64,000 nucleotides of DNA from an uncultured delta proteobacterium. Its GTDB lineage: Bacteria > Desulfobacterota > Syntrophorhabdia > Syntrophorhabdales > WCHB1-27. Position 1 is the stretch's first letter. The number at the start of each line of letters is the position of its first letter. Below the pieces are notes generated by a model that had not been told where the DNA came from, made no database searches, and saw nothing but the letters and a program-made list of their open reading frames with translations. Below, piece after piece: positions 992-64,000 of the stretch. The stretch lies in contig CAWGEZ010000060.1 in assembly GCA_963821605.1 (NCBI GenBank), positions 9,915 through 73,914 of the forward strand, written 5' to 3'. The translations under genes and the position numbers were made by a program.

Positions 992-1960
992 TCATCCGCG
1001 GAAAATATTCTGATTGTGCCAAGTAATGAATTCTCTGGCGGGACGGAAATCGTTCCTGATGGGCACATGCACTGGTAGGCCATTCATGGCATAGTAGTCC
1101 CTGCCATTCTCAAACTCCTCACGAATCCTACGGCTGACCTCAAGGCGGTAATCAGGAGTGATCGTCACATACCCCGCATCCAAGAGCCGATGAATGTCTG
1201 ACCTGAGCAGGACACCGTTGCTGACTTTATGGGGTCCACTCTCGCTGAAGGGCTTTATGTGGCCAGCCTCCAACGCGGGCAGAGTTCTTTCTTGCGTTAC
1301 CGCGCACTTCCGCTGGTATGCGTCCGTGACAAGCACCCTAAAGCTGCCTTGCCCAAGGCGTGGAAGTACCAAAACTGGGCTTCCATATTGGGGTCCTATT
1401 TCTCGAATCTGGGTCAATTCAATCGGCTGGAATCTTGCTCGAAGTCGGGCACTGACTTCGGCCCAAAGATCTTTTCCGATGGAGCTCGACAGATCGTATC
1501 CTTTGCCCTGCACGATGTTCGACTTCCAGTCCATTGGTGCCTGAATCCAGTTATCCCGATCGAAGAAAAAGGGTTGTTCCAGCAATATGCATCCAATCTG
1601 ATAATCTTCGGCGGGCACGGGAGATTTGTGGCGGTGTTTCTCGATTTGAATCCGCATTTCTGTTAGTGACCTTGCGCCATTTTTTTCCCCGAAGGTAGCC
1701 CATGCTAGACTGCAAGGTAACAGTGTGCTGTGCGCGTAGAATCCACCACCGACAATGTAGTTGAAGGGGCTGTGGAGCTTAAAGAGGAAGGGCTCCCCTG
1801 GGTCGAGTGCCTGGAACAGATGGCCGCCGCCTGGCTGCCAGAAATTGACCTCATCGATGCTTGGGAGCTTTGACAAGAAGGTGAACCAATCGTTATCAGT
1901 GACGCCGATAAAAGCTCTCACCGGCCCCCCCCGGGATGTACCCTGCCTACAAGGAGCCAA
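992..1960 (-). CDS. HNH endonuclease with a ~200-aa uncharacterised N-terminal domain (predicted restriction-endonuclease type)
   Basis: 322-aa ORF. The C-terminal HNH-like core reads AGHIKPFSESGPHKVSNGVLLRSDIHRLLDAGYVTI. The N-terminal part (FWQPGG...FLFKLHSP.NYIVGGGFY) resembles the PUA/EVE-like readers fused to HNH in modification-dependent nucleases. That resemblance is recognition only. Confidence 0.6.
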   Translation of the reverse strand: MAPCRQGTSRGGPVRAFIGVTDNDWFTFLSKLPSIDEVNFWQPGGGHLFQALDPGEPFLFKLHSPFNYIVGGGFYAHSTLLPCSLAWATFGEKNGARSLTEMRIQIEKHRHKSPVPAEDYQIGCILLEQPFFFDRDNWIQAPMDWKSNIVQGKGYDLSSSIGKDLWAEVSARLRARFQPIELTQIREIGPQYGSPVLVLPRLGQGSFRVLVTDAYQRKCAVTQERTLPALEAGHIKPFSESGPHKVSNGVLLRSDIHRLLDAGYVTITPDYRLEVSRRIREEFENGRDYYAMNGLPVHVPIRNDFRPAREFITWHNQNIFRG

Positions 1961-2306
1961 TCATAAGAAGCTTGAAAACGTTGGTTGCTGCGTTAGCATA
2001 ACTTCTCGCTACTCTGCTCTCGGGTCGGGCGATTTTGTCGATTAGTTACGTAATTTATTATCGCCCATTCGGTCATCTTTCGCTGATCCATGTCGTGCCG
2101 ACAGGCGCTGCACTACTTAACGTACAAAATTATATACCCGTGAGTTGAGTTCGTCAAAGATTCAATTGTGCGGATACTACAGAAAAACAGGGGCCTGAGC
2201 GGTACAAGGCGGGGGCGAGATAGAAGAAATCTGGAATGTGCAGGCTAATTCGGGTAATATATGTTCAGGTGGTAGCCTGAAAAAGAAGCAGGAGTGAGAG
2301 AGGCGG

Positions 2307-3797
2307 ATGGCGAGGGGGCAGAAGGACCTGTTGTTTGGGGATGCTGATGTGAGCACGGCGAAGGCGCGTGGGGGCTACTACACGCCCGAGTCGGTTGTGG
2401 CAACCTTGATTGGTTGGGCTGTGCACGAGACATCTGACCGGCTGCTGACCCCTCCTGTGGAGATGGTCGGTTTATAGCCGCACATCGGAACAGCGTTGGG
2501 ATTGAGCAGGATGCTCAAGCGACTCGTGACGCTGTTGCGCGCGCGCCCTGGGCGCTGGTCCACGAGGGGGATTTTTTTTCCTGGGCGGATAACACAAGCG
2601 AGCGTTTCGAGTGTGCCGTTGGGAATCCGCCATTCATACGGTACCAGTCTTTCAAAGGCAGCGTACGCGACAAAGCCTTATCCTTCTGCGCCAAACATGG
2701 CGCTCTCTTTTCCGGCCTCACCTCCTCATGGGCACCTTTTCTGGTTGCCGCAGCCAGTCTGTTGAAACCATCAGGTCGTATGGCGTTTGTTGTTCCCGCG
2801 GAGATAGGTCATGCGCCGTATGCTGCTCCGTTGCTGGAATTCCTCGTCTCCAAATTCTCGCATCGTGCAGATCGTTGCCATGAGAGAGAAGATTTTCCCG
2901 GAACTGTCTGAAGATTGTTGGCTCCTGTATGCCACAGGATTCGGGCGGATCAACAAATGAAATTTCTTTTTCGCCGATCCGTTTTTTTAAGTTTATGTCG
3001 ACTCCGCCAAGACATGGAGTCGCAGTTCCGGTGGGCGAGTGGCGGACGTCGTGGAATCAGAAATTACGCCCGTTTCTGATGCCTGCAAATGCGCGTGACC
3101 TTTACCTTGCCGCTGTTAATTCCCGTCATGCGAAGCGCTTAGGTGATATCGCCTCCGTGGGTATAGGGTACGTAACAGGTGCCAATGAGTTTTTCCATTT
3201 AAGACCCTCGCATGCTCAAAAGCTGGTATACATGGCGATCTGCTTCTCCCTTCCGTGAGAAATGGCCGCATGCTTCCGTCAGGCCAATTGACCGCAGACT
3301 GCGTCAAAGGGTGGTACAGGTCGGATTTGCCGATGCTGCTTCTTAAATTGTCCAATTCCGTCGATATACCACTTCCGGTCAAAAAATATCTCGAAAGCCA
3401 GGAAGGTCGTGCGGCGCGCGAAACTTATAAATGCCGAAACCGATCGCCATGGTATGTCGTGCCTGATGTGGTAGTGCCCGACTATTTCCTGAGCTACATG
3501 TCTGGCGGCAAACCTAGCCTGGTTCTGAACGCCGCCGGTTGCTCCTGTACGAACTCCTTACACGCCGTCCGGTTGAAGGACCGTGGGGAAGGAAAAAAGC
3601 TGCAGCAGGCTTGGGGGGCGCCGATGGTTGAATTGAGCTGCGAGCTTGAAGGGCACCCTCTTGGCGGCGGCATGCTTAAGTTGGAGCCGCGTGAGGCGGC
3701 TCGAATTCTCATAACCGATACGTCTCGCTCTGCTACGGAAGCCGAGATATTAACCGGTGCTATCGAGACGATGAGGAATTGGAGGCATTGTGCTTAA
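2307..3797 (+). pseudogene. N6-adenine DNA methyltransferase (Eco57I-like gamma class), disrupted by at least 4 frameshifts
   Basis: ATG at 2307 gives MARGQKDLL...GGYYTPESVV. After a 1-nt shift near 2437 the reading continues DPSCGDGRF (SAM motif I), then VGNPPF (motif IV, about 2625). Further frame changes occur near 2866, 2945 and 3220. The last piece is the 3255..3797 ORF. Confidence 0.7.
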
Positions 3798-4706
3798 GCA
3801 AATCTGCCAATGGGAGAGCTTCCGCAGCGCCCTAACCAAATTTGTCACCACAAAGGGTGGGACGGAAAGTGCAGAGCACATCAAGCCGCTTCACTGGTAT
3901 GTTGCGTGTCGGTTGGTTCTTGAAGGGGGCTTTCACCCTGACGAGATAACTCCGCGACCTCCTTTCAAGGTCGCGACGCGGGGCAAGAGCAAGCTCCTCA
4001 CATACGACCCGTCAAGTGCCAAGGGTGGCGAAAGAACAGTTCTCGGCGGACTCAAAACGAAAAGCGTTGACGTTGTTGTCACGAAGAACGGCATGGGTCC
4101 GGTGATAGCAGTGTCGCTGAAGGGGGCCTTGGGTGCATTCCGAAATCTCACGAACCGCATGGAAGAAGCGGTAGGTGATTGCACGAACCTTCATATTACC
4201 TACCCGGCCTTGGTGTACGGTTTCATGGTCGTGCTTAGAGCTAACCGAAGAGTGACAACACCCGCCACTGCCGGTGAAGCCACACAAAAGGTCCGGGAGG
4301 TTCAACCCGCGCACGCTGACACAGCCGTAATAGAAGAAATGGGGAAAGAGCGGCCCGCTGAGATGATTTTCCGCTTTCATTCTGCGCTCAGCGAATTGAC
4401 TGGTCGGCGCGGAATCAGGAATGACGTGAGCAGGTACGAGACCGTGGCCCTTGCCCTGGTGGACCCGAGGAAGGCCTCATTGGGCCAGTTTTGGCCAGCT
4501 TTCCGCCGCCCGATAGTTCGCTCCGGCTTAACTCCTTCTTTAAGACTATCTATCAACGGTACGATGAGCGCTTCGTGTATGGAGCACCCGATCTGAAGGC
4601 AGTTACGTCTCGTGCCGAATGGTCAGAGAAGTCCCCGGTCTTTGAACCTGAGACCATGCGCCAGTGTGGTATTGCAGAACTCGATTTCGATCCAAGACTT
4701 GCCTGA
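3790..4706 (+). CDS. Putative type II restriction endonuclease partner of the methyltransferase (one frameshift near 4495)
   Basis: The start overlaps the methyltransferase stop by 8 nt. DVVVTKNGMGPVIAVSLKG is a possible PD-(D/E)xK-like core. The C-terminus continues in the 4491..4706 frame (FFKTIYQRYDERFVYGAPDLK...). The function is assigned from context, not from a recognised family. Confidence 0.4.
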
Positions 4707-4811: not shown

Positions 4812-5231
4812 TCATGACCTCTTCGCCGTGCACGTGCTGTATGGTAACTTCGCATTCCCAGACCGCACACCCGTATCAGGCAACTTCGGCGGCTTGGCCG
4901 AGGTCTGAATCCAGCTCTTGCCTTTTGGTTCATTGATCTGTGCCAACATGCCGCTTGTGTAATCGCCGATATCCTTGTCGGTGAATTCGGTGCCTACATT
5001 ATTACAGAACTGACCAGCGGAGAGGTTTACATCCTGCATCCGGAAGACTGCGCGGATCATCTCCTTGCCCGTGGGGGGCACTTTGGGATCGACCGGCTTT
5101 GGAGCCACAACTGCGGGTTCTTTTGCCGTATCCTTGAGCGGAGGCTCAGGCGCGCGGCCACAGGATATGCTGAACAGGAACAGGGGAACTCCTTTATGCG
5201 GCCACCGTGGCAGGCAAAGAGGCCGTTTCAC
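4812..5231 (-). CDS. Hypothetical lipoprotein
   Basis: 139-aa ORF with a lipobox-like LFLFSISCG near the N-terminus. No family recognised. Confidence 0.35.
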   Translation of the reverse strand: MKRPLCLPRWPHKGVPLFLFSISCGRAPEPPLKDTAKEPAVVAPKPVDPKVPPTGKEMIRAVFRMQDVNLSAGQFCNNVGTEFTDKDIGDYTSGMLAQINEPKGKSWIQTSAKPPKLPDTGVRSGNAKLPYSTCTAKRS

Positions 5232-44058: not shown

Positions 44059-44358
44059 TCAGCTCGCTCGTGGCCCACGCCCCGTGAGCCTGTTCTCTCT
44101 TGTTCCCATTTTCTTCAGCGCAACGTTGGCCGCAATCAGTATTGGGTCCCATACGGTTGCAAACGGTGGAGCATACCCTAGATCGAGTCGGGCAACGTCT
44201 TCAATCGTCATTCTAGCATAAAGAGCCGTCGCAATCGTATCAATACGGTGTGCCACCCCTTCCTGCCCGACCATCTGGGCTGACGCACTGGCTGCGGACA
44301 TACCGGCGGCCACTCCACCGATGACTACCAGTCGCTCTTTTCGCGATTCCACAGTCAT
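44059..44358 (-). pseudogene. Internally deleted remnant of a pyridine nucleotide-disulfide (CoA-disulfide/NADH oxidase-type) oxidoreductase
   Basis: The N-terminal FAD fingerprint LVVIGGVAAGMSAA is fused directly to a C-terminal dimerisation-domain sequence (TIEDVARLDLGYAPPFATVWDPI). About 350 expected codons between them are absent. Confidence 0.55.
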
Positions 44359-49571: not shown

Positions 49572-50606
49572 GTTTTATTTCAAAATTGATGGGTATGGTT
49601 TCATCATTTTCCACGCATTGCGCCATGGACCTTGGCACGGCCAACACGCTGATTTATCTGAAGGGCGAAGGCATCGTGCTGAACGAGCCGTCGGTCGTGG
49701 CTCTTGAAAGGGACACCGGGAGGGTTATTGCCGTGGGCCGAGAGGCAAAAGAGTACATTGGCAAAACACCCCCGCACATCAGCGCAATCCGGCCGCTCAA
49801 AGACGGAGTAATCGCGGATTTCGATGTGGCCAAGGCGATGATCAAGTATTTTCTGAACGTGGTCAAAGAGACGCGGAAGATTTCGAAGCCCAAAATGGTG
49901 GTCTGTGTGCCGTCCGGAATAACGCAGGTTGAGAAGAAGGCGGTCGTTGATGCCTGCTTTCAGGTTGGTATCCGGGACATCCATCTGATCGAAGAACCGA
50001 TGGCTGCCGCAATCGGGGCTGAACTGCCCATAGAGCTCCCCAGAGGAAACATGATTTGCGACATCGGCGGCGGTACGACAGAGGTGGCGATTATCAGCCT
50101 TTCTGCAAACGCGTACAGCGAATCCTTGCGCGTAGCGGGTGATGAGATGGATGAAGCCATTGTGAGGCATCTGCAAAAGAAGTATCAGGTTGCTGTGGGA
50201 GTGAATGCGGCGGAGAGAATCAAGATGGAGGTCGGTTCAGCTTACCCGGGCGCTGCGTCCGGATCAATGAACGTTGTGGGCAAGGATCTCGTCAACGGCA
50301 TTCCCAAGACCATTGCCGTTACCGCGGACGACGTGAGGGAGGCAATAGAAGAGCCGGTAGAGGCGATCATAGATGCGGTGAAGAGGGCTCTGGAGAAACT
50401 TCCGCCGGAGCTCGTTTCAGACCTGAAGGACTCGGGCATGGTGCTGACTGGCGGCGGTGCACTTCTCAAGGGGCTGGATAAGAGGATATCGGAACGGACG
50501 AGCCTCGAAGTCCACGTGCCTGAGGATCCGTTGATCTGCGTCGTCATGGGAAGCGGCAGGGCGCTGGAAGAGATACAGCGCTATCAAGAAGGTGTTTATC
50601 AACTAG
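49568..50606 (+). CDS. mreB: Rod-shape-determining protein MreB (frameshift near 50582)
   Basis: MDLGTANTLIYLKGEGIVLNEPSVVA, ISAIRPLKDGVIADF and DIGGGTTEVAIISL are MreB motifs. A 1-nt shift restores the typical C-terminus ...KKVFIN plus stop at 50606. The listed ORF instead runs into a repeat. Confidence 0.9.
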
Positions 50607-50649
50607 CGCAAAACCTGTTCCTTACAGGATGCTACGCTACCGGTTACGG

Positions 50650-53688: not shown

Positions 53689-53750
53689 GGCTACGCCTAA
53701 TATGGCCATCACCGGGCGCGGTACGCGATCCGGTGCATGGCATCGTTACG
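53689..53750 (-). repeat. attC-like site 7 (after RHH-mazF unit)
   Basis: Minus strand: GCGTAAC-GAT-GCCATGCACCGG-loop-CCGGTGATGGC-CATATTAGGC-GTAGCC. R'' overlaps the mazF stop. L'' has one extra G relative to L'. Confidence 0.5.
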
Positions 53751-54081
53751 CAATGATCTCGTTCAGACCTTCAACTACCTGAATCATTTCTTCCTGAGAG
53801 GCCTTTCCTATAACCTTTCCGATTCTCTCCACGGAAAGGGTTCGGATTTGACTAATCTTCACCCATGACTGCTTTGGTAGATTGCCGGTTCTAAGTTCAA
53901 ATGTTAAAGGGAATCCCGCTTTTTGGTGCTGGCTTGTGATTGCGACGGCTATGACAGTTCCGGAACGTTCGTTAAAAATATCGTGGCTGAGGATCAAAAC
54001 AGGACGACGCCCGGTCTGTTCGCGACCTCGCGTGGGATTTAAGTCCGCCCATCGAATCTCCCCCCTTAGTATTCGGGCCAT
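53746..54081 (-). CDS. mazF: MazF/PemK-family type II toxin (mRNA interferase)
   Basis: 111 aa: GEIRWADLNPTRGREQTGRRPVLILS...TVIAVAITS. Confidence 0.85.
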   Translation of the reverse strand: MARILRGEIRWADLNPTRGREQTGRRPVLILSHDIFNERSGTVIAVAITSQHQKAGFPLTFELRTGNLPKQSWVKISQIRTLSVERIGKVIGKASQEEMIQVVEGLNEIIA

Positions 54082-54308
54082 TGGCTCACATCCTCGGTCA
54101 GTCCTTCCTCGGCCATTGCTTTCTCAGCCACGCGGTCGAGCCTAGCACATTCGATCGCGAGTCGGCTTCGTTTCAGTCGCAGCAGCTTTTCACTCACTGC
54201 TTCCTGGATGACCTGGCTGCGGCTTTGATACACATGCCTCTTGACCAACCCATCTAATTCGCCAATGAATTCCTTATCCAGTGTAATTGCTATCTTTTCT
54301 TTAGCCAT
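54066..54308 (-). CDS. Ribbon-helix-helix (CopG-like) antitoxin of the downstream MazF
   Basis: MAKEKIAITLDKEFIGELDGLV...SRSQVIQEAV. It overlaps mazF by 16 nt. The start is taken at the internal ATG 54308, behind RBS GGGAGGG. Confidence 0.7.
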   Translation of the reverse strand: MAKEKIAITLDKEFIGELDGLVKRHVYQSRSQVIQEAVSEKLLRLKRSRLAIECARLDRVAEKAMAEEGLTEDVSQWPEY

Positions 54309-54329
54309 TCTCCCGCCCTCCCGATAATA

Positions 54330-54348
54330 GTATGACATTATATCATAC
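54330..54348 (-). promoter_or_regulatory. Palindromic operator overlapping a TATAAT box upstream of the RHH-mazF pair
   Basis: The minus strand reads GTATGATATAATGTCATAC. This is GTATGA / TCATAC arms around TATAAT, 20 nt upstream of the antitoxin ATG. Confidence 0.45.
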
Positions 54349-54384
54349 CATCAAGCATGCGAGCAACTACTCGGTCGATTCTGA

Positions 54385-54441
54385 GCCGAACATGAAAATC
54401 AGCGGGGGCTGTGAGACCTCCGCTGCATTGCCTTGCTGGGC
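54385..54441 (-). repeat. attC-like site 6 (after SnoaL unit; R'' unclear)
   Basis: Minus strand: ...AATGCAGCGG-AGGTCTCACAGCC-CCCGCTGATTTTCAT-GTTCGGC. It is homologous to sites 2 and 3. It lies 75 nt after the stop, and the R'' box is not obvious. Confidence 0.4.
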
Positions 54442-54516
54442 GGTCATCAAAATGTGTCACTTCATCACATTTCAACATTTCAAGAGCGTCTCGGTCGCCC
54501 AGGCCAACCGCGACCA

Positions 54517-54867
54517 TCAGCCTTTGGACAAAATCTTTGCGGCAAACGACTGGGTAACGATTTTGCCGCCCTGAACGACGAAGGTGTCTGTCGCCAGGTC
54601 GTAAGTGTTGTCGGCCGTCTCGGCGGTCCACAAAATATAGGCGTAGTCACCTTTGATGGACTGGTGCCTCAATTCAAACGAAGAACCAGGCTTTGCGAAC
54701 TCTGCCAACAAATGCTCGAATAACGGTCTGATGGCGTCGACTCCCAGCAACGGCCCGTCAGGCGTGAACAAGATTGACATGGGAGTGTAGTCGGAGAGGA
54801 TGCCATTGAGGTCGCCCTTGCCAAAGCACATCAAATGGTTGTCCAGGACTTCTTTCGTCGTCTTCAT
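54517..54867 (-). CDS. SnoaL-like / NTF2-fold protein
   Basis: 116 aa from the internal ATG 54867 (MKTTKEVLDNHLMCFGKGDLNGILSDY...ILWTAE...TDTFVVQGGKI). Confidence 0.65.
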   Translation of the reverse strand: MKTTKEVLDNHLMCFGKGDLNGILSDYTPMSILFTPDGPLLGVDAIRPLFEHLLAEFAKPGSSFELRHQSIKGDYAYILWTAETADNTYDLATDTFVVQGGKIVTQSFAAKILSKG

Positions 54868-54929
54868 TGCTACTCCTCGTTTCGTGGTTGCTGTTTTATA
54901 GAATGTAGACACTCATTCGGTATAAAATT

Positions 54930-54988
54930 CCTATACCCAGATTGGCGTCACCTGATCTTGGGCCGATCTGCGGCATCATCTGTTAGCC
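54930..54988 (-). repeat. attC-like site 5 (after methyltransferase unit; degenerate R')
   Basis: R'' GGCTAAC overlaps the stop. The internal GATCGGC...GTGACGCC is homologous to site 4. The 3' end reads GTATAGG instead of GTTRRRY. Confidence 0.35.
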
Positions 54989-55540
54989 CTTTTCTAATAT
55001 CACTGCCCTATTAGGAAATATTCTTGGCCTTTCAACAGGTATGAGGCCTGTATCCCGTGCTTTTCTGATGGTCCGCTCAAATGCCGTCTTTGAGGTATGC
55101 AATGGCGGCTCGACGATGAGAACTTGTCCGTTTGGCTTAAGTATTGATATTATCTCGTTGAAAAAGTCTTCCTGATTGGGAATTTCGTGAACCATATAGA
55201 ATGCCAGAACAAAATTAACACGCTCTGACAAACCCAACGTGTCCTTTTCGCACTTATGCAGGGTGATACGCTCTTCAAGTTCTGTTCCCTGAATTTTCTT
55301 TCTTAGTTTCCGAAGCATCCCTTCCTGCAAATCTGCAGCAATGACCCTACCTGATTTGCCAACCATCTGGGCTAGTTCAATGGAGAAAAAACCTGGGCCG
55401 CAACCTACATCCAGGACTGTCATTCCTTCTCTGACATAGGGTCCGAGTATTTTGTGAGGGTTTTGTAACCATCTTCGGATTCTATTGTCGAGACCACTTG
55501 CTAACGTAACCGGGCATACACGATTCTTTTCATCGGCCAC
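54983..55540 (-). CDS. Class I SAM-dependent methyltransferase
   Basis: 185 aa. Motif I is VLDVGCGPGFFS, followed by VIAADLQ. Confidence 0.8.
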   Translation of the reverse strand: MADEKNRVCPVTLASGLDNRIRRWLQNPHKILGPYVREGMTVLDVGCGPGFFSIELAQMVGKSGRVIAADLQEGMLRKLRKKIQGTELEERITLHKCEKDTLGLSERVNFVLAFYMVHEIPNQEDFFNEIISILKPNGQVLIVEPPLHTSKTAFERTIRKARDTGLIPVERPRIFPNRAVILEKG

Positions 55541-55560
55541 TATGCCCGTCTCCTCTCTGT

Positions 55561-55626
55561 GGCTAACGCCTGCATAACCGGGAGGCGACGCCGTTTGTTG
55601 CCGATCCGGTTCATGCGGTGTTAGCC
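55561..55626 (-). repeat. attC-like site 4 (after GNAT unit)
   Basis: Minus strand: GGCTAAC-ACC-GCATGAACCGG-ATCGGCAACAAACGGCGTCGCCT-CCCGGTTATGC-AGGC-GTTAGCC. The R boxes are perfectly complementary. L'' has one extrahelical G. Confidence 0.65.
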
Positions 55627-56127
55627 ACTTGCACTAAAGCCTTCATGGAATACTACCGTACCGCTGGTCTTGCTCTCCTCGAACGGCAACGCAAGAAAGT
55701 ACTGTTGTGGAACGCCGTCAATAAATAAGTCCGTGAGATTTCTAAAGCCGAACCTTTCATAGTAACCAGGGTCGCCCACGAGCACGCAACCTTTTGCACC
55801 CAATGCCTTTAGCAAAGAAAGACCTTCATAAACCAGGGATTTTCCAATACCCTGCTTCTGTAATTCTGGTACGACAGAGATGGGACCAAGACCATACCAA
55901 TCAGGGCTACCATCGGAAATGGTCACAGGCGAAAATGCTATGTGGCCTACCACCTTCTTCTCAACTTCTGCAATCAGCGAGATTGTGAGCGCTTTTGCAT
56001 CTCGTAATGCGCAAATAATGAACTGCTCCGTGTGGTTACTAATGGCAAGACTCTCAAAAGCTGCTTTGGTGATTTCGGATATTGTTTCAACGTCTGACCC
56101 GATTTCATTCCGAATAATGATGTTCAT
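55621..56127 (-). CDS. GNAT-family N-acetyltransferase
   Basis: 168 aa from ATG 56127. The acetyl-CoA site is VVPELQKQGIGKSLV. It looks YhbS-like overall. Confidence 0.8.
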   Translation of the reverse strand: MNIIIRNEIGSDVETISEITKAAFESLAISNHTEQFIICALRDAKALTISLIAEVEKKVVGHIAFSPVTISDGSPDWYGLGPISVVPELQKQGIGKSLVYEGLSLLKALGAKGCVLVGDPGYYERFGFRNLTDLFIDGVPQQYFLALPFEESKTSGTVVFHEGFSASG

Positions 56128-56161
56128 GTCTGACTCGCACCCCATGGCTTATTTACTGATG

Positions 56162-56218
56162 GCTCAACATGAAGTTCAGCCGGCGCTGCAAGCGATCGGC
56201 TGCAACGGCTCGTTACCC
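56162..56218 (-). repeat. attC-like site 3 (after phd-parE unit)
   Basis: Minus strand: GGGTAAC-GAGCCGT-TGCAGCCG-ATCGCTTGCAGCG-CCGGCTGA-ACTTCAT-GTTGAGC. R'' spans the parE stop codon. Confidence 0.6.
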
Positions 56219-56512
56219 GCCGCCGCTTTCAGGTTCTTGAGGTAACTGAGCGCTATGCCATGCGGCAACGATCCATACAGTTTCATCTTTGATTCTGTAG
56301 AAGAACCGATATGGCCTCACAATCACTTCACGAAAAGGGAGATCCGAGAACTCCGGAACCAATCTCCCGGATTCTGGAAACTTTGTCAGGCGAGAAAGCG
56401 TCTTCTCTGCCCTCTTGCGGAAACTTATGGCACCCGAAGGGTTATCCCGGTAAATGTAAGCAATTGCTCCAAGAAACTGGCGGCGGCCCGTCGGGGTGAA
56501 AAGAACTCTCAA
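56213..56512 (-). CDS. RelE/ParE-family type II toxin
   Basis: 99 aa with ...PESGRLVPEF....REVIVRPYRFFYRI.DETVWIVAAWH. Confidence 0.8.
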   Translation of the reverse strand: MRVLFTPTGRRQFLGAIAYIYRDNPSGAISFRKRAEKTLSRLTKFPESGRLVPEFSDLPFREVIVRPYRFFYRIKDETVWIVAAWHSAQLPQEPESGGG

Positions 56513-56790
56513 GGCCTTGAAGTCTCAAGAAACCGGTCGGCTTCTTTCAAAACGTCGTCAAGTTCATAGCCGACGCCCGCCCCTATTTCTTTCTCACCAA
56601 GAGCCAGTAACCGTAAGATGTCAAGCTCATGCTGGAACTCTTCATAAACCTGCATGCTGACCATGACTGCGGCCGCTCGTCCGCGCTGGGTGATAAAGAC
56701 AGGTTCTCTGGACGATGAAACGCCTTTGACAACATCGCTCGCGTTTTGTCTCAGGTCGGAAATAGGTATGATCTTTGGAGCCTTAGGCAT
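56509..56790 (-). CDS. Phd/YefM-family antitoxin
   Basis: 93 aa: IPISDLRQNASDVVKGVSSSREPVFITQRGRAAAVMVS. There is a 4-nt overlap with the toxin. Confidence 0.8.
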   Translation of the reverse strand: MPKAPKIIPISDLRQNASDVVKGVSSSREPVFITQRGRAAAVMVSMQVYEEFQHELDILRLLALGEKEIGAGVGYELDDVLKEADRFLETSRP

Positions 56791-56808
56791 TGCTTGTACC
56801 TCCTATGA

Positions 56809-56845
56809 TACTATTAATAGTACTACAGGCGGGTACCGTCGTCAA
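56809..56845 (-). promoter_or_regulatory. Putative promoter plus palindromic operator of the phd-parE unit
   Basis: Minus strand: TTGACG (56845-56840), a 17-nt spacer, then TACTAT (56822-56817). The perfect palindrome TACTATTAATAGTA (56809-56822) covers the -10 box. Confidence 0.5.
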
Positions 56846-56868
56846 GATTTCTGCCTCAGTCTTCTTAC

Positions 56869-56927
56869 GGGTAACACCATGATCAGCAGCGAGTATAACG
56901 AGTCGGCTGCATCAATTTGGCCCGCTT
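56869..56927 (-). repeat. attC-like site 2 (after antitoxin-mazF-like unit)
   Basis: Minus strand: AAGCGGGCCAAATTGA-TGCAGCCGACTCG-TTATA-CTCGCTGCTGATCATGGT-GTTACCC. The L boxes are homologous to sites 3 and 6. The R'' box is poor. Confidence 0.45.
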
Positions 56928-57251
56928 CTAATGGATGTCTAGTTGAACCTTGATGGCTTCCTCTACCTTGTGCATGTCCTCCTGGGATAGGATACTAGCG
57001 CGTTTGAAAAGCCGCTCTTTGCTGACCGTTGCGAGTTGGTCCGCCATAGCCTTACTTTTCTTGCCTTCAAAAACGACTGCGCCCTCACTCGGGTAGAGCT
57101 TGTCCACGTTGCTGGTGAGAGGAACAACCTGGACTCGGTTGAGGAATCGGTTGGAGGCATCATTGCTTACAATCACTGCAGGTCGCTTTTTCCTCACCTC
57201 TCCGCCTATAGAAGGATCAAAGTTAACCCACCAAATCTCACGCCGCTTCAT
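56928..57251 (-). CDS. MazF/PemK-family type II toxin, second copy
   Basis: 107 aa: [28 protein letters not shown]...VQVVPLTS. Confidence 0.85.
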
Positions 57252-57466
57252 GCTATGTCCTTAAAGGTGGCCTCGGCCCACTCAACGGCCTCCTTCTCTC
57301 TTTTTTTGTCCTTCGCCATATCGGCGTATGCCGATGCCAGGTTGGGACGAACGACATGCGGACGAACCAATTCTTGCACGAACCTGCTTATTTTGCGAGG
57401 ACCAATGGTCTTGTGGAGTCCTTCGTAGACCTCTTCATCCACCGTTATGGTCAGCTTCTTCTGCAT
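57248..57466 (-). CDS. Antitoxin partner of the second MazF-like toxin
   Basis: 72 aa beginning [17 protein letters not shown] (RHH-like start). There is a 4-nt overlap with the toxin. Confidence 0.6.
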
Positions 57467-57482
57467 TGCACGCCTCCATTAT

Positions 57483-57517
57483 ACGTATACTATACGTGTA
57501 GTTGAGCGGCGTGTCAA
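57483..57517 (-). promoter_or_regulatory. Putative promoter plus palindromic operator of the antitoxin-mazF-like unit
   Basis: Minus strand: TTGACA (57517-57512), a 17-nt spacer, then TATAGT (57494-57489). The perfect palindrome ACGTATA-G-TATACGT (57483-57497) covers the -10 box. Confidence 0.5.
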
Positions 57518-57586
57518 TTGCTCATTGTTTTTGGGGCCAACGAAAAGCTCACCTGCGCGGCGGACAGGAAGAGGGGTATGGGAAAG

Positions 57587-57641
57587 CCTTAACGGGATGA
57601 ACCAGATATTCTCCCGCGTCAGGTGCAGCGCCTTGTTCGCT
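57587..57641 (-). repeat. attC-like site 1 (after hicBA unit)
   Basis: Minus strand: AGCGAAC-AAGGCGC-TGCACCTGA-CGCGGGAGAAT-ATCTGGTTCA-TCCC-GTTAAGG. R'' overlaps the hicA stop. Confidence 0.55.
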
Positions 57642-57865
57642 CACAAAAGCTGTTTCAACTGTTCTATTGAGATCTCACAATCCCGGAGGATTTGAGCCAA
57701 CAGCCCTCGACCAATTGTTTCACCGCTATGAACTGGCACTGTGGTACATCTGCCGTCAGAATGCTGAAGGAAATGGTGGCTGCCTTTCTTGCGAATGACC
57801 TCGAAGCCCGTTTTCCGAAGAGCCTTGACGAGTCGTTGGCCCGTAACGGCAGGAAGAGTGCTCAC
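57641..57865 (-). CDS. hicA: HicA-family toxin (mRNA interferase)
   Basis: GTG start at 57865. The 74-aa protein carries GQRLVKALRKTGFEVIRKKGSHHFL. Confidence 0.8.
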   Translation of the reverse strand: MSTLPAVTGQRLVKALRKTGFEVIRKKGSHHFLQHSDGRCTTVPVHSGETIGRGLLAQILRDCEISIEQLKQLL

Positions 57866-58071
57866 GCGTTGACCGCCACACGTTGAACGCCTATGAATTC
57901 GGTGGGTATCGGGTCCTCCACCTCGAGGCAAAGCTCAATTGCCTCTTTTACTCTTTTCATAAGGACGTCAAGTGACTTTGCCTGTGTATGACATCCCCGT
58001 AAGGCGGGTACCGATGCTACAAAATATCCGTCCTCGTCTTTCTCGATAACTACGCTGAATTCTCTGATCAT
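57862..58071 (-). CDS. hicB: HicB-family antitoxin (short UPF0150 type)
   Basis: 69 aa: FSVVIEKDEDGYFVASVPALRGCHTQAKSLDVLMKRVKEAIELCLE. There is a 4-nt overlap with hicA. Confidence 0.8.
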   Translation of the reverse strand: MIREFSVVIEKDEDGYFVASVPALRGCHTQAKSLDVLMKRVKEAIELCLEVEDPIPTEFIGVQRVAVNA

Positions 58072-58309
58072 TTCCTTAATCCTCCATACCTTATAATATC
58101 ACAGAGGAAACGTCGCTTCATCTTTTCTTTAGCGAACAATTAATATACGGTGCCCGTCTTTTCTGACATCTTATACCGTTGTCGAAAAAATGCAATAACA
58201 AAATGTTCAGCAAAAGCAATAACTTAACTTATGGCTACTTGGCAATTGGTCGATAATATCAGGAAAGGCGGGGTTGGTTTTTCCTGGCACCCCATTATAG
58301 CCCATTAGC

Positions 58310-58447
58310 ATGGACCTGAAAGATATTCTCCCCGAGTTCCAGACGTTCCTCCGGGAACGAAGAATAGTCCACCAGAATAGTATACTCTGCTACGCTGTTT
58401 GGGCCAGCAAATTCCTGGGCTTCGCTCTCATGAATCACAACCCGTGA
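58310..58447 (+). pseudogene. Remnant (45 codons) of an integron-integrase-like tyrosine recombinase N-terminus
   Basis: MDLKDILPEFQTFLRERRIVHQNSILCYAVWASKFLGFALMNHNP followed by a stop. The F..FL...(9-12)...Y..W...FL.F pattern resembles the N-terminal SAM-like domain of IntI-type recombinases. It is divergent from the cassettes, and nothing downstream in any frame continues it. Confidence 0.4.
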
Positions 58448-58651
58448 TTGACCGCGTATACTGAGGGCTGCGCGGCGCGCTACGTGAACAACAGTTCGGT
58501 ACCGGCCGGGCGAGTTTCGATGGATACCGCGAAGACAAGGGGCCGCCGACCGGAGGCGTAGCAGCGCTACGTTGAGGACCGTGCGCGAAGGCGATAGCGA
58601 AGCATCCTGTAAGGACAAAGGTAGGCGCGAAAGGCGCCCGGCCGCTTCCCG

Positions 58652-59959
58652 CTATCTCACGAGATTAGACAGACACAGCACCGTCCAATACGGCGACACC
58701 ATCAAGCATATAATCGATAGAATATATGACGGGATATAATAAAGCCCGCCCCGAAAGACCGTTGCCAGCGGAATATCTTTTGCCATGCCTGCGACCACGT
58801 AGCAACATATCCCGATCGGTGGCATGATGGAACCCATGGTCGTCACGATGGTGATGACCTGGCCGAACCAGATCGGGTCGTAGCCCATGTGCGTGACGAT
58901 GGGATAGAAGATGGGCAGGGAGACGAGCAGGAAGGCGAGCGCGTCCATCACGCAGCCCCCGATAATGTAACAGAACAAGACTATCCAGAGGAGGATCCAG
59001 TTCGGGAGAGCCAGTCCGCTGATCCAGTCCGCGGCCTCAAACGGAAGCCGGGTAACCGTGAGAAAACGGCCGAAAATAACGGCCCCTGCCACGATCATGA
59101 AGACAAGACAGGAGATGCGCAGGGTGTCGACGATGGATAAGATGAAATGTTTCCATGTCAGCTTCCGGCGCACGAGGCAGATGATAAGGCCGAGGGCGCA
59201 GCTTGCTGCGGCTGCTTCGGTGGCAGTGACAACACCTGTAAAGAGGGCGTACATGATGATGGCAAAGAGGATCAGGATATCGATGATGTCCGGAAGTGCC
59301 TTGAACCGTTCCCGCCATGAGCTTTTGTCGCCGGCAGGTCCCCAATCCGGATGGCGCCAGCAGATGTAGCCTACGGTCGCTGCAATAAGAACAGTCAGTA
59401 TGGCGCTCGGTATTACGTTGCCGAAAAAAAGTTTGCCTATGGACTGGCCGGTGTATAGCCCGTACACGACGAGCACGATGCTCGGAGGGATCAGAACACC
59501 GAGGGTGGCCCCGGCCGCAACAGAACCGGCGTTAAGCATGGGGTGATAGTTATATTTTCTCATGGCCGGGATCGCCACCTGGCTCATGGTGGCTGCTGTT
59601 GCGGTGTTACTGCCGCTTATGGCTGAAAAGGCTGCGCACGCCATGATGGTGGTGATGGCCAGTCCGCCCTTGTAATGACCGAACCATTTGTAGGTCGCGT
59701 GATAGAGCCCGTCGTTGTAGCCCGCGTAGTGGACAAATTCGCCCACGAGAATAAACATGGGGATAACGGTGAGCCCGTAATTTGAGAAAATGTTCCACAT
59801 GTCCGTACCGATCATGCCGAGAGCTGCCGGCAGAGAGGTCACATAAGCAAATCCCAGGAATCCGACAATGGCCATGGTGAACCCTGCAGGTATCCTGAAC
59901 AGAAATAGCACGGCAAACATCACCACGATCCCGTATACACCAACGATAGGGCCTTGCAT
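58652..59959 (-). CDS. dctM: TRAP transporter large permease
   Basis: Intact 435 aa, polytopic, immediately downstream of dctQ. Confidence 0.9.
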   Translation of the reverse strand: MQGPIVGVYGIVVMFAVLFLFRIPAGFTMAIVGFLGFAYVTSLPAALGMIGTDMWNIFSNYGLTVIPMFILVGEFVHYAGYNDGLYHATYKWFGHYKGGLAITTIMACAAFSAISGSNTATAATMSQVAIPAMRKYNYHPMLNAGSVAAGATLGVLIPPSIVLVVYGLYTGQSIGKLFFGNVIPSAILTVLIAATVGYICWRHPDWGPAGDKSSWRERFKALPDIIDILILFAIIMYALFTGVVTATEAAAASCALGLIICLVRRKLTWKHFILSIVDTLRISCLVFMIVAGAVIFGRFLTVTRLPFEAADWISGLALPNWILLWIVLFCYIIGGCVMDALAFLLVSLPIFYPIVTHMGYDPIWFGQVITIVTTMGSIMPPIGICCYVVAGMAKDIPLATVFRGGLYYIPSYILSIICLMVSPYWTVLCLSNLVR

Positions 59960-59961
59960 GC

Positions 59962-60448
59962 TTACTCCTCTCCCGGGGCGAATATGTTCTTCAGGAAGTC
60001 AACAAAAGCGGTAAGGGATACCACTGCAAACGCAAGGGCGACGGCAAAAACGAAGGGATGATAGATCACCTTCAAGGTCTCTGAGACCTCGTGGGATACA
60101 TATATCTTCATACCCCAGACGAAAATCTGCCAGGAGACAATGGCGAAAAATAGCGTGATCACAAGGTAGGCGAAGGTATCGACGCCCTTCTGCAGTTTTT
60201 TTGGAAATCGCTCCGTGAGAATTTCCACGATAATGTGGTCCTTCCTTCGCTGGGTGTAACCAAGGGCAAAGGCTATGACAATAGCTCCAAGGAAGGCTAC
60301 GATCTCGTAAGCCCCGCGAAAGGGCAGATGAAATACCCTGAGCACAACGTTGCCGGTGGCAAGGGTCATGAGCGCAAGAACGGCAATGCCGCCGAGGATC
60401 ATAAGGACCTTGTTAAGAATGTTGGTTAACAGTTCGAGATATCTTCAT
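59962..60448 (-). CDS. dctQ: TRAP transporter small permease (frameshift near 60415)
   Basis: About 160 aa with 4 TM segments. ATG 60448 (MKISRTVN..) joins the 59962..60402 frame. Confidence 0.8.
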
Positions 60449-60568
60449 CCCAGTCCTCCACTAATGGGACACCCGCAAGGCGGGTACCCTGCTCACCGTG
60501 CGATCTGCTCGTCATGGAAAAGGCGCCCGGATGGCATTACTCCGGACACCTTTTCCATGAACGCTCAG

Positions 60569-61601
60569 TTACTTGAACTGTTTTTCGTATTTGTCCTTAA
60601 GCTTGTAAATATCGCTGAGGACCTGTTCCCCCGGAGTCCCCTGCGGGGTCACCCTCTTAACATACTCGTCCATCATGGGCTTGACGAGTTTCGGGATTTC
60701 AGTATACTCGGCGGCCGGCAGCCGAAAAACCTGGTGGCTATATTTTTCCTTTGACCAGGCAAGGGCCTCCTTGACGTGGTCATCCACGTATTTGCCCGTC
60801 CAATCCGCCTGCTCTCGCCTCAAGTCATCCAACACCTTTTTGACGTTAGCGGGCATAGCATTCCATTTGTCCTTGTTCATGACAACGGCGAAGGTAACAA
60901 CGAAGAGGTTCGCCTCAGTTGCGTACGGGCAATAAGCAGCGAAGTTGAAGTCCTTCAGTATCTCCATCGAGGAAACGATGCCCTTCACTACGCCTTTCTG
61001 GATGGCCTCGGGTGTTTCCGACTGGGGCATGGCGACAGGGGTGCCTCCGAGACGGGTGATGACTTCCGCCCCCGTACCCGAAACACGCAGCTCCATCCCT
61101 TTTAGGTCTTTCAGCGATTTTACCGGGGTCTTGGTCATGAAGTCTGCCGGCGGGCAGGTGAACAGGGTTAAGATCTTTACTTTTTCGAATTCCTTTGGAT
61201 ACTTTTCAACGAGATCGTAGAGGGCAAGACTGGCAGCCCTGGCACTGGTGAAGCCGATGGGAAGATCGACTGCTTCGGAAACAGGGAAGCGCCCCGGCTG
61301 ATAGCTCATCGCAAAGTTCCCGATATCTGCTGTGCCGGTGATGACGCCGTCAAATATGTTCTTGGCAGGGAGAAGCGTGCCGCCCGGGAACGTCTTTACC
61401 GAAACGGCATTGTTGGTTCTTTTCTCCACTTCCTTTGCCCATCTCTCCATCTGGACACACGGGAACGTTGTCGCCGGAGGAAAATTGGCGTACGTCAAGG
61501 TTATCTTCTGCTGGGCCCCGGCCAGACTCGGGTGCGACAAGGCTTGCACCCATCAGCAAACTGATCCCCAAAAACATCACGAGCGTTTTTTTGAGAAGCA
61601 T
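60569..61601 (-). CDS. dctP: TRAP transporter DctP-type substrate-binding protein (frameshift near 61545)
   Basis: The signal peptide MLLKKTLVMFLGISLLMGASL lies in the 61350..61601 frame. The body is 60569..61549. It is a paralogue of 26156..27179. Confidence 0.85.
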
Positions 61602-61644
61602 AACTACCCCCTTTTAGTTAGTCATGGGCCCTACCCAGGCCCTT

Positions 61645-61678
61645 ATACCGATTCGCCTTCATTCATGCAAACTGGTAT
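61645..61678. repeat. Collapsed family-B terminal inverted-repeat pair (34 bp)
   Basis: ATACCGATTCGC-cttcattcat-GCAAACTGGTAT. The right arm is identical to the family-B repeat. The left arm has 3 mismatches. Confidence 0.4.
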
Positions 61679-61701
61679 TAACCACCATAGCCTTCTGCTA
61701 G

Positions 61702-62145
61702 TCACGCCTTGCGTTCTGCTTCCTTTACCTTGCTTATGTCAAAATCGCCGTCGAGAAGCTCTGTAAGCACGCCACAGAGTTTGTTTGGCTTGTGTATGAA
61801 GGCATAACGATTGCCGAAGAGAGCGCGGGGCCTCTCGTCGATCAGGTCGACACCCTTTGCTTTCAGCTCAGCTAGCGCTCCGTCGAGATTATCCACCTTG
61901 TATGAGATGAGGAAGACCCCTTCCCCCCTCTTTTCGATAAACTTTGCAACTTCGCCTTCGGGGCCTGTCGATTCCATGAATTCCACCGCTACCTCGCCGA
62001 CATAGTAGCGCGCGACCTTGATAGACTCGGACTCTGCAACGTATTCAACTGTCGGCACCAGACCGAAATTCTCCTCGTAGATCTTCTTCGTACGCTCCAG
62101 GTTTTCAACCGCAAAACAGATGTGGTCTATCTTCTCGATCTTCAT
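61702..62145 (-). CDS. VOC-family protein (methylmalonyl-CoA epimerase / glyoxalase-like)
   Basis: 147 aa: IDHICFAVENLERTKKIYEENFG...VAVEFME...GEGVFLISYKVDNLDGAL...FIHP. Confidence 0.7.
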   Translation of the reverse strand: MKIEKIDHICFAVENLERTKKIYEENFGLVPTVEYVAESESIKVARYYVGEVAVEFMESTGPEGEVAKFIEKRGEGVFLISYKVDNLDGALAELKAKGVDLIDERPRALFGNRYAFIHKPNKLCGVLTELLDGDFDISKVKEAERKA

Positions 62146-64000
62146 TTTGCCCTGCCGGACTGTCCTCCGGCCTCACTTGCAGCCTTCTTCTTAGAAGGGT
62201 TCAAGGTATTTTGCCTTATCTCGCTCGACCCTGGCCCTCGAACCCTTGAACCCTGTTTCTCCTCCAGCGCTTTCACTATCTTGTCGGGTGTAATGGGAAA
62301 CTCGTGGATGTACGTCCCGATCGCGTTGCAGATGGCCGCAGCATAGCCTTGCGCCGCGGACATGGCTATCGACATGGCGGCTTCTTTTGCGCCGTAGGGA
62401 CCGTTGGGGTCATGCGACTCTACAATGATGTTGTTGATCTTCGGCATGTCGCAGGCGAGCGGCAGCTTGTAGTCAAGCTGGGTGGGGTTGAGGACCCTTC
62501 CGCCGTCGAAGATGTGGTACTCGGTGAGCATGCCTCCCTGGCCACCCATCGCCAGCCCCCCCTCAAACTGGCTCTCGATGATCTTGGGATTCAGGGCGTA
62601 GCCAACGTCCTGGGCTGCCCATGCTTCAAGTACCGTGACGTGGCCGGTTTCCGGGTCCACCTCCACCTCCACGATGGTCGTACCGAAGGAAAAAGCTTCA
62701 GAGAGCTGGCCCGAAGGATTTTCCACCCACTCGCGCCGTGAGTCCACTTTCGGCCAGTAGGCGCCTTGTCCGCTGATCGACTGGCCTCTGGAGAGCCCCA
62801 TGCGGACAGCGCGCGTCAGGGACAGGCTGCGCTCGGGCTCGCCTTTGACCATGATCTTTCTGTCTTTCGCGATCAGGTCTTCCGGTTTCGCCTCCAGCGC
62901 CTTTGCGGCTATAACAAAGAGTTTCTGCTTTGCATCCTGCAGCGGCGAGTCGTACCGCGTTTCCCCCGACAAAGGTGGAGACCATGGAATAGGAGCCCGG
63001 ATCGCTGGGCGTTACTTCAGTGTCCGCGGAGATGAGCTGGACGTCCTCGGGTGCAAGGCCCAGTTCTTCCGCGGCAATCTGCACGAGCATGGTTTCATTG
63101 CCCTGCCCGTTATCGACAACGCCGGAAATAACCGTGATGCCGCCGTCTTCGTTGAATTTGATGAATGCCTCCGACCCGCCCCTGATACCCATGGGAAATC
63201 CCGTCTGAACGGAGTTGCAGCCGATGCCGATGCCATGGAAGGCAGGCAGCTTTCCCCATTTCTCTTTCCAGCGTGCTGCCTCTGCCGACTTTACGATGGT
63301 CTCGGTCATACCGCAGCTTCCCACGTAGGACTTTGTCGGCGTGGTATCACCCGGCTGCCGGGCGTTGCGCAGGCGCATGGTCACGGGGTCTATGCCCAGC
63401 TCTTCGCCCAGCATGTCGAGCTGCAGGTCCACGCCGCAGGCGAAGGCCCTGCCGTGGCAGCGGTACATGCCCCGGATAGGCTTATTGGTGAGTACGCGGT
63501 AGCCGTTATAGCGGACATTCTCCATGCGGTAGGCCTGCTCCATGCACAAGAAAGGCACACTGGTCGCGATGGGTCCCGTGCTCGAATAGGCCCCGCCATC
63601 CATGTAGCAGGTGACATCGCGGGCCTGGACGCGCCCTTCGCGGTCGACCCCGGTCTTGATGATCGCCTTCATGCCGTGTGCCTGACGCGTTGCTATCGAG
63701 TTTTCTTCCCGTGTGTAGACGATCTTGACGGGACGGCCCGACTTCCGGGCGAGAAGGGCACACATCACGTCCGCGGGAGAGATCTCCGACCTTCCGCCGA
63801 ACGCTCCGCCTATGGTGATCTTGCGCACGCGCACCTTGTTGAGCGGCATTTTGAGCACGTTCGCCAGCGGCTTCGCCTTGAGGTGAGGACCCCCATTCGG
63901 CATCCAGATTTCCAGGTTGCCCGCATTGTCGAACTGGGCGACCACGGCGTACGGTTCAGCCTGGAAGTACGATTCCTCGGGAGCATCAAAGGTATCTTCT
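62142..64000 (-). CDS. Molybdopterin-binding subunit of a xanthine dehydrogenase / aldehyde oxidoreductase-family enzyme (4-hydroxybenzoyl-CoA reductase alpha-like); N-terminus outside the window; frameshift near 62960
   Basis: The ORFs 62698..63945 and 62142..972 join. GGAFGGR, the GQG..T pattern (DNGQGNETM) and the C-terminal Mo-binding domain are typical of this family. Confidence 0.75.

Follow-up and report, generated by a model that had tools for sequence, protein, structure and literature searches.

The window, the whole stretch of 64,000 nucleotides analysed here, very probably contains the head of a sedentary chromosomal integron in which one internal in-frame deletion destroyed the integrase gene. 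The source genome is a MAG of 71 contigs, 73% complete. The ancestral gene would have encoded a long-form IntI of ~424 aa, with an extra N-terminal four-helix domain, a core-binding domain and a catalytic domain carrying the IntI-specific insert; its transcription would have been divergent from attI and convergent with dctM. Codons 40 to ~417 would have been removed by a ~1.13 kb deletion, probably between short direct repeats, which fused codon 39 to the last six codons and left an ORF with 45 codons. Still intact are attI, the platform between attI and intI, and at least five attC sites. Because attI and attC were kept without an integrase, the cassettes would be stranded in a CALIN-like array, and an IntI supplied in trans would be needed for their mobility.

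The initial annotation had described a plus-strand ORF of 45 codons at 58310..58447 as a truncated integrase-like N-terminus. Its coordinates, length and translation were all confirmed, as was the distance of 173 bp from the stub ATG to the junction base 58137; a TAG at 58298-58300 is a stop four codons 5' of this ATG. ORFs of such size are common by chance (119 ORFs of at least 30 aa overlap 54000-64000), and the case for the stub therefore rests on homology and context; it is homology, and not length, that places it beyond chance. The 45-aa peptide by itself had no match in Pfam or NCBIfam, and Pfam was blank for Phage_int_SAM_4 (PF13495) both in the peptide and in residues 1-102 of the IntI from a same-genus genome, G001. 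The homology was visible only via six-frame searches of related genomes and a family profile. In the six-frame search, which covered 60 related genomes, open frames of 424-446 aa were found to begin with sequence matching the peptide, the best match being the 424-aa IntI of G001 (~55-56% identity over residues 1-39/40). When the peptide was compared by hhalign with profile A3, which represents the IntI N-terminal extension and was built from 15 proteins, columns and residues 1-42 were aligned (98.75%, E 1.5e-16). The proposed origin from an integron integrase was borne out by this match and by the intact G001 gene. The HMM and tblastn comparisons proposed along with it were blank in Pfam and NCBIfam and positive in the six-frame search and the family profile.

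58310..58447, plus strand: stub ORF, 45 codons, MDLKDILPEFQTFLRERRIVHQNSILCYAVWASKFLGFALMNHNP.
58310..58426, plus strand: putative former intI codons 1-39, matching helices 1-2 of the extra four-helix domain at the N-terminus, from hhalign and G001 identity.

Two full-length long-form IntI proteins, searched by tblastn against 57000-59000, recovered residues 1-39 alone, in agreement with the annotated absence of a downstream recombinase frame. A TIGR02249 search of the contig that holds the window (C60) gave no match, and PF00589 with the R-K-H-R-H-Y residues was not found in the 45-residue ORF. The IntI-specific additional domain (I2 helix or IntI patch) is absent from the window, and the IntI patch is present in the syntenic intact relative, P0001 of G001. 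The exact 45-aa product is absent from other assemblies on record. Descent from intI was indicated by homology, by the intact gene at the dctM locus and by the kept 3' end. Judged by its sequence, the stub ORF is an integron-integrase remnant and not an IntI. Nothing is left of the catalytic residues, of the IntI-specific insert or of the canonical DNA-binding domain, so the stub product would be unable to recombine DNA.

The intact relatives contain two N-terminal domains. The G001 protein P0001 matched TIGR02249 (NCBIfam) with 414 bits over residues 103-419, the cut-off being 265 bits; Pfam identified PF13495 at 106-188 and PF00589 at 206-405, and left residues 1-102 blank. The canonical SAM-like domain of the IntI core therefore corresponds to residues ~103-190 of the intact relative, and the extra N-terminal domain of the long form, to which the peptide belongs, to residues 1-~95. 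The extension profile was aligned by hhalign to the canonical domain of the same proteins (90%, E 1.5e-6), and against PDB sequences it matched residues 5-64 of VchIntIA (2a3v; E 9.9e-6). The long-form extension thus appears to be a diverged copy of the SAM-like/core-binding domain, a link to the SAM-like fold made solely by profile-profile and profile-to-PDB comparison. The initial annotation had noted by eye a resemblance of the peptide to the SAM-like domain of integron integrases; since the extension appears to be such a diverged copy, the likeness would be real but would concern a paralogous extra domain, not the canonical core domain.

For a relative, residues 1-210 were modelled with AlphaFold (mean pLDDT 87.7); the model contains two tandem four-helix units, with helices at 8-17, 22-42, 47-60 and 66-95 in unit 1, and at 105-119, 123-144, 153-165 and 171-188 in unit 2. 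By this model, the stub would span only the first two helices of unit 1. A fold search with the two-domain model matched VchIntIA, XerA and Cre; these matches may come from either domain and say nothing more about the extension by itself. Long-form intI was confirmed at 580 or more loci, in Syntrophorhabdus, Nitrospirota, Omnitrophota, Syntrophales, Scalindua, Lentisphaeria, Prosthecochloris and others; among the matches listed, the closest relatives came from Syntrophorhabdus MAGs, a hint at the affiliation of the organism behind the window. Planctomycetota and Chlorobiota are among the phyla with long-form IntI proteins (420-445 aa), and the second N-terminal domain has no Pfam or NCBIfam model. 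Deltaproteobacterial 'clade 15' IntI proteins have been reported to be ~120 aa longer; the authors termed them a gene fusion and suspected that they function (Nemergut et al. 2008, PMC2426708).

The stub lies next to a recognizable attI site and platform.

58131..58148, minus strand: attI core, GTATATTAATT/GTTCGCT on the minus strand, crossover after G58137.
58149..58309, plus strand: integron platform from attI to the intI start, with the conserved box CTTGGCAATTGGTCGATAATATCAGGAAA at 58238-58266.

The motif YAAC/AATTAATATAC (intI strand) was found 150-200 nt 5' of intact long-form intI in G001, two Syntrophorhabdus MAGs, Omnitrophota, Smithellaceae and other MAGs. It is common to intact long-form integrons of several phyla, so it was assigned as the attI of this integrase clade. 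The boundary was marked from both sides: homology of the hicBA cassette to other arrays begins exactly at 58137/58138, and platform homology to contig C39 of G001 begins at 58136. The attI is beside the intI start and the first cassette begins from G/TT, as in an integron platform. The platform shares 69-73% identity with two other G001 integron heads and 86% with the heads of the metagenome contigs L125 and L132 (58297-58135), and its box is near-identical to that of a Syntrophorhabdus MAG. A weak promoter-like match (ATGTCA-16-TATATT) was found on the minus strand at 58169..58142, and the platform may have a promoter or regulatory role. Another box, GGCAATTGGTCGATAATATCAG, ~50-70 nt ahead of the ATG, is common to the Syntrophorhabdus-like group.

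The lesion was located by comparison with the intI locus of G001, using piecewise alignments. The G001 locus consists of dctM, a REP-like repeat, intI (424 aa; convergent with dctM), attI and cassettes, in that order. The window has the same order, but with 45 codons in place of 424.

58424..58426, plus strand: putative deletion junction, codon A39, common to the N- and C-terminal alignments.
58427..58447, plus strand: putative last six codons and native stop of the former intI, from the 24-nt match to the G001 gene end.
58448..58487, strand not assigned: spacer 3' of intI, globally aligned to the spacer after the intact G001 intI.
58488..58650, strand not assigned: composite REP-like dispersed repeat, imperfect terminal inverted arms at 58498-58519 and 58628-58649.
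58652..59959, minus strand: dctM (TRAP transporter large permease; PF06808, E 3e-85), convergent with the former intI.

The divergence of the stub from the cassettes, described earlier as the canonical intI/attI layout, matches the G001 order, and the undeleted state sought in related genomes was found there as a 424-aa IntI between attI and dctM. This intact gene and the attC sites described below also bear out the earlier reading of an integrase-less, CALIN-like array created by deletion. The N-side alignment extends to codon 39 (...FLGFA in the window, ...FLRFA in G001), and the C-side alignment pairs ALMNHNP* of the window with ALMNRGR* of G001. When 58424-58447 was compared ungapped with the 1.7 kb G001 locus, its best match was the last 24 nt of intI, with 17 of 24 positions identical; the next best match had 14 of 24, and 17 was reached by 6 of 2000 shuffles. 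The match includes a 10-base identical run and a coincident stop codon, and is colinear with the spacer, of which 40-50 nt align before the repeat and dctM follow in matching order. The stub thus ends in 24 nt that correspond to the final 24 nt of the intact gene, and colinear spacer, repeat and dctM come next, which argues for an internal in-frame deletion. The stub would keep its native start and native stop, and ~378 codons (~1.13 kb) would have been lost. The sequence TGCGC is present at both breakpoints in G001, and a microhomology-mediated deletion, over these 5 nt, is a plausible mechanism. The stub and the G001 intI share 56% protein identity, against 91% DNA identity for the flanking dctM; the two heads are therefore possibly not strict orthologues, and the deletion size is an estimate.

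The differences by codon position were also compared. Between the stub and intact genes they fall mostly in the third position (7/8/23, 11/9/22 and 10/12/27), whereas between the stub and another stub they are even (9/9/9). This pattern fits a gene that would have been long constrained and would now be drifting.

A simple 3' truncation, from about codon 45 to just beyond the old stop, with the likeness of ALMNHNP* being coincidental, is a quite improbable alternative. After FL.F, other stubs and intact relatives show F-[AV]-[NSQ]-[QKR]-N, loosely like FALMN, and hhalign carries the N-terminal alignment to residue 42, as this explanation would expect. However, the 24-mer matches the G001 gene end best (17 versus 14, with 6 of 2000 shuffles), and the 10-base run, the shared stop and the colinearity all point to the gene end. 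The retained 3' piece is short, with 17 identities in 24 nt, and the N-terminal domain of paralogous stubs goes on with the loosely similar F-V-(S/N)-Q-N; there is a small chance that the breakpoint lies a few codons further on.

The role of the repeat was reconsidered. The initial annotation had placed a repeat containing GCGATAGCGAAGCATCCTGTAAGGAC at 58591-58616, followed by the dctM stop, and this arrangement was found as described; the claim that the ORF was cut off at this dispersed repeat did not hold. The ORF ends at what would be the native intI stop (17/24), and the repeat block beside dctM is also present in the four sister genomes G001, G002, G003 and G004. The block would thus be an older, ancestral intergenic element that did not truncate intI. 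Its high-copy core has four matches in the window (at most 3 mismatches; 0 expected). The source genome contains 54 repeat matches and 122 BLAST HSPs, and a 17-nt core is present in 322 copies (at most 2 mismatches) in 4.5 Mb. An Rfam search of the region identified no family. The dctM gene is present in all six genomes of the genus, the window copy having 83-91% nt identity to the five others, and is the chromosomal anchor of the locus.

Some side observations concern these repeats. CCTGTA[AG]GGAC...AAAG REP-like elements were found at or near the downstream edge of three different intI stubs: L125 (~1950-2035, reverse strand), L030 (~3200-3300, contig C175 of G001) and the window (58591-58625). 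Such elements may be involved in some deletions, or may simply be common 3' of intI. Inverted repeat copies at 50548-50642 and 58592-58650 also flank the cassette region and a pfk-like stretch, with arms of 37 nt (78% complementary) and 17 nt (94% complementary); given 322 copies of the core, this flanking may be due to chance.

The cassettes were identified with an attC covariance model, R1, based on seven attC-like sites, all outside the window (five from other contigs of the source genome and two from the G001 integron). The model replaced a home-made scan, based on AAC...GTT stems and their folding energy, that had not told attC sites from background. In the 64-kb window the model found five attC sites (E 3.9e-9 to 5.4e-4), all on the minus strand and all in gaps between small minus-strand genes; nothing comparable was found elsewhere in the 64 kb. 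Folding of the best two is far more stable than that of shuffles (z -4.1 and -3.2).

57537..58137, minus strand: first cassette, hicB-hicA (Pfam HicB_lk_antitox and HicA_toxin).
57535-57641, minus strand: attC of the first cassette, 29.7 bits, E 6.6e-5.
56869-56922, minus strand: weak sixth attC, E 0.15.
56162-56218, minus strand: attC, E 5.4e-4.
55561-55626, minus strand: attC, E 3.9e-9.
54385-54441, minus strand: attC, E 1.8e-4.
53695-53751, minus strand: attC, E 3.2e-7.
53695..56922, minus strand: rest of the array, with antitoxin/PemK, Phd/ParE, GNAT, methyltransferase, SnoaL-like and antitoxin/PemK (Pfam).

A nitroreductase gene is next after the cassettes. The strongest evidence for the cassette boundaries comes from the hicBA matches. 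The 600-bp hicBA unit is 91-99% identical in eight other metagenome contigs, with homology running from 58137/58138 to 57537-57539; in these contigs other attC sites come before it and other genes after it. They are among at least 21 contigs of other assemblies that code for the exact HicB protein. The presence of hicBA at differing positions in at least eight other arrays indicates recent cassette traffic in the community, although this genome has no integrase. In L125 and L132, one additional cassette lies between attI and hicBA, and intI was deleted straight after the ATG; contig C34 of the source genome carries a cassette with 91.6% identity to the extra one. Type II TA pairs make up 4 of the seven to eight cassettes. 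TA cassettes in chromosomal integrons work against array loss, and by analogy the four TA cassettes would oppose loss of the present array.

It is highly improbable that the stub was kept for use, whether as a small attI-binding or IntI-interfering protein, or as DNA with a cassette promoter or regulatory site. The frame, start and stop survived the deletion, the platform and the first ~36 codons are the part conserved among several decayed heads, and the Pc promoter lies inside intI in class 1 integrons. However, the frame would be kept by chance in 1 of 3 cases, and sister stubs lack a start codon, are frameshifted or contain stops. The L125 and L132 heads keep nothing past the ATG, the head on contig C5 of the source genome has no ORF at all, stub-stub substitutions are even across codon positions, and promoter-like matches are weak. 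Moreover, the N-terminal peptide was the query by which the stubs were recovered, and ascertainment therefore accounts for part of the extent they share; for the same reason, similar stub lengths were rejected as a sign of selective retention. A function of the stub itself is unlikely.

The least credible explanation is an assembly artefact, in which the contig would be collapsed or chimeric across the repeated platform or REP and the true genome would hold a full-length intI: the MAG is fragmented (71 contigs, 73% complete) and platform and REP sequences are repeated in these genomes, but the junction lies in unique sequence with microhomology of at most 5 nt, far below assembler k-mers, the assembly contains no second copy of the platform, the stub or the missing intI middle, and independent assemblies carry other natural deletion alleles of such heads. 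Contig L131, which parts from the window at 58215, was considered as a sign of a chimera and rejected; it differs also 3' of the cassette and its flanks are missing from the source genome, so it represents a different array.

An internal deletion in intI also fits into a wider pattern of integrase decay in the genome and the genus. No intI above the TIGR02249 cut-off was found in the source assembly (73% complete), and the intact paralogue for which the initial annotation had proposed to look elsewhere in the genome did not turn up in it. The assembly contains 15 attC hits on 9 contigs. Contig C5 has a head (~4330-4460, attC at 5106-5168) where a perfect attI, GGTATATTAATTGTTAGC, is accompanied by the platform box and a cassette, with no trace of an intI ORF. 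Contig C13 encodes a 55-residue C-terminal IntI fragment (TIGR02249 positions 260-314, 91.6 bits) that is 86% identical to the frameshifted dctM-adjacent intI of G002. This fragment was considered as the missing half of the stub and rejected, since it belongs to another IntI type and the window ORF has its own 3' end. On C13 (L010 1402-1668 and ~1757-1780), an attI-like GCGTATATTAATTTGTTAGGCC and a cassette whose attC is good come ~100 bp after the fragment, on the same strand; this co-orientation could reflect an inversion or an integron of the inverted type.

The dctM locus differs among the sister genomes. G001 has the intact intI (L018 346-1620), and G002 has a long-form intI of a different subtype (L121 9860-11153, contig C19) with at least one frameshift, whose C-terminal end also appears altered. 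In G004 and G005 no intI was found within 8-12 kb of dctM, and the G003 contig ends too early to tell. Three further N-terminal stubs in G001 have lost the start or contain a frameshift or a stop. The lesions in the G001 and G002 heads differ, and integrase decay is therefore recurrent in the lineage. In total, at least three heads without integrase were found in the source genome and at least three stubs in the sister genome. The integrase has been lost repeatedly, attI and the platform have been kept, and hicBA-like cassettes occur at new positions; it is therefore possible, though rather unlikely, that such heads are maintained as docking and expression sites on which rare intact long-form integrases of the population act in trans, in which case the stub or platform might hold a needed promoter or regulatory site.

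A second short ORF was seen in the window at 44059-44358 (minus strand). It had been read at first as the two end parts of a flavoprotein joined in frame, and it gave a weak Pyr_redox_dim match over residues 27-68 (E 1e-3), under the Pfam cut-off. Two in-frame N- and C-terminal fusions in one window are worth a look.

A CALIN is a cluster of attC sites lacking an integron integrase; such clusters are common, and loss of intI is one of their proposed origins (Cury et al. 2016, PMC4889954). As in that definition, which asks for at least two attC sites on the same strand spaced by less than 4 kb, the window has five covariance-model sites at 53695-57641, no TIGR02249 match on contig C60 and no functional intI at the locus. 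The locus is a CALIN-like array made by integrase loss, which is a known kind of decay. In the same survey, intI pseudogenes were recognized by IntI_Cterm or PF00589 hits that spanned over 50% of that profile's length, and were found near 15 of 279 CALIN (PMC4889954). Unlike those pseudogenes, the window stub has no C-terminal part, so the published test would miss it, and attI and the platform are still there. Inactivating stops, frameshifts or large indels were reported for about a third of intI genes (Nemergut et al. 2008, PMC2426708). The parent of the stub would be a long form, like the clade 15 IntI of that study; the near-total in-frame deletion, with 45 codons left, differs from its pseudogenes, and the IntI-patch criterion would not find the stub.

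Similarities were also seen to better known systems. Sedentary chromosomal integrons are rich in TA cassettes, as in the Vibrio superintegrons (Richard et al. 2024, PMC13108822). Compared with the superintegrons, the window array is likewise chromosomal, TA-rich and at a conserved locus; it differs in being small, with heterogeneous and partly degenerate attC sites, no integrase and an uncultured anaerobe as host. The domain family of the stub is homologous to the N-terminal core-binding domain of VchIntIA (IntI4; PDB 2A3V), and the intact long-form relatives have the full IntI core as VchIntIA does. However, VchIntIA has one N-terminal four-helix domain, the parent family of the stub would have two in tandem, and the stub would retain two helices.

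In summary, the comparisons suggest that this locus would be a well-anchored example of a CALIN arising from a complete chromosomal integron by one intI deletion. The leftover is too small for the C-terminal pseudogene test, and therefore some of the 95% of CALIN without a recognizable intI pseudogene may hide such stubs. The long-form IntI with a duplicated N-terminal domain and a conserved attI motif, from which the stub would have descended, is widespread in uncultured anaerobic phyla.
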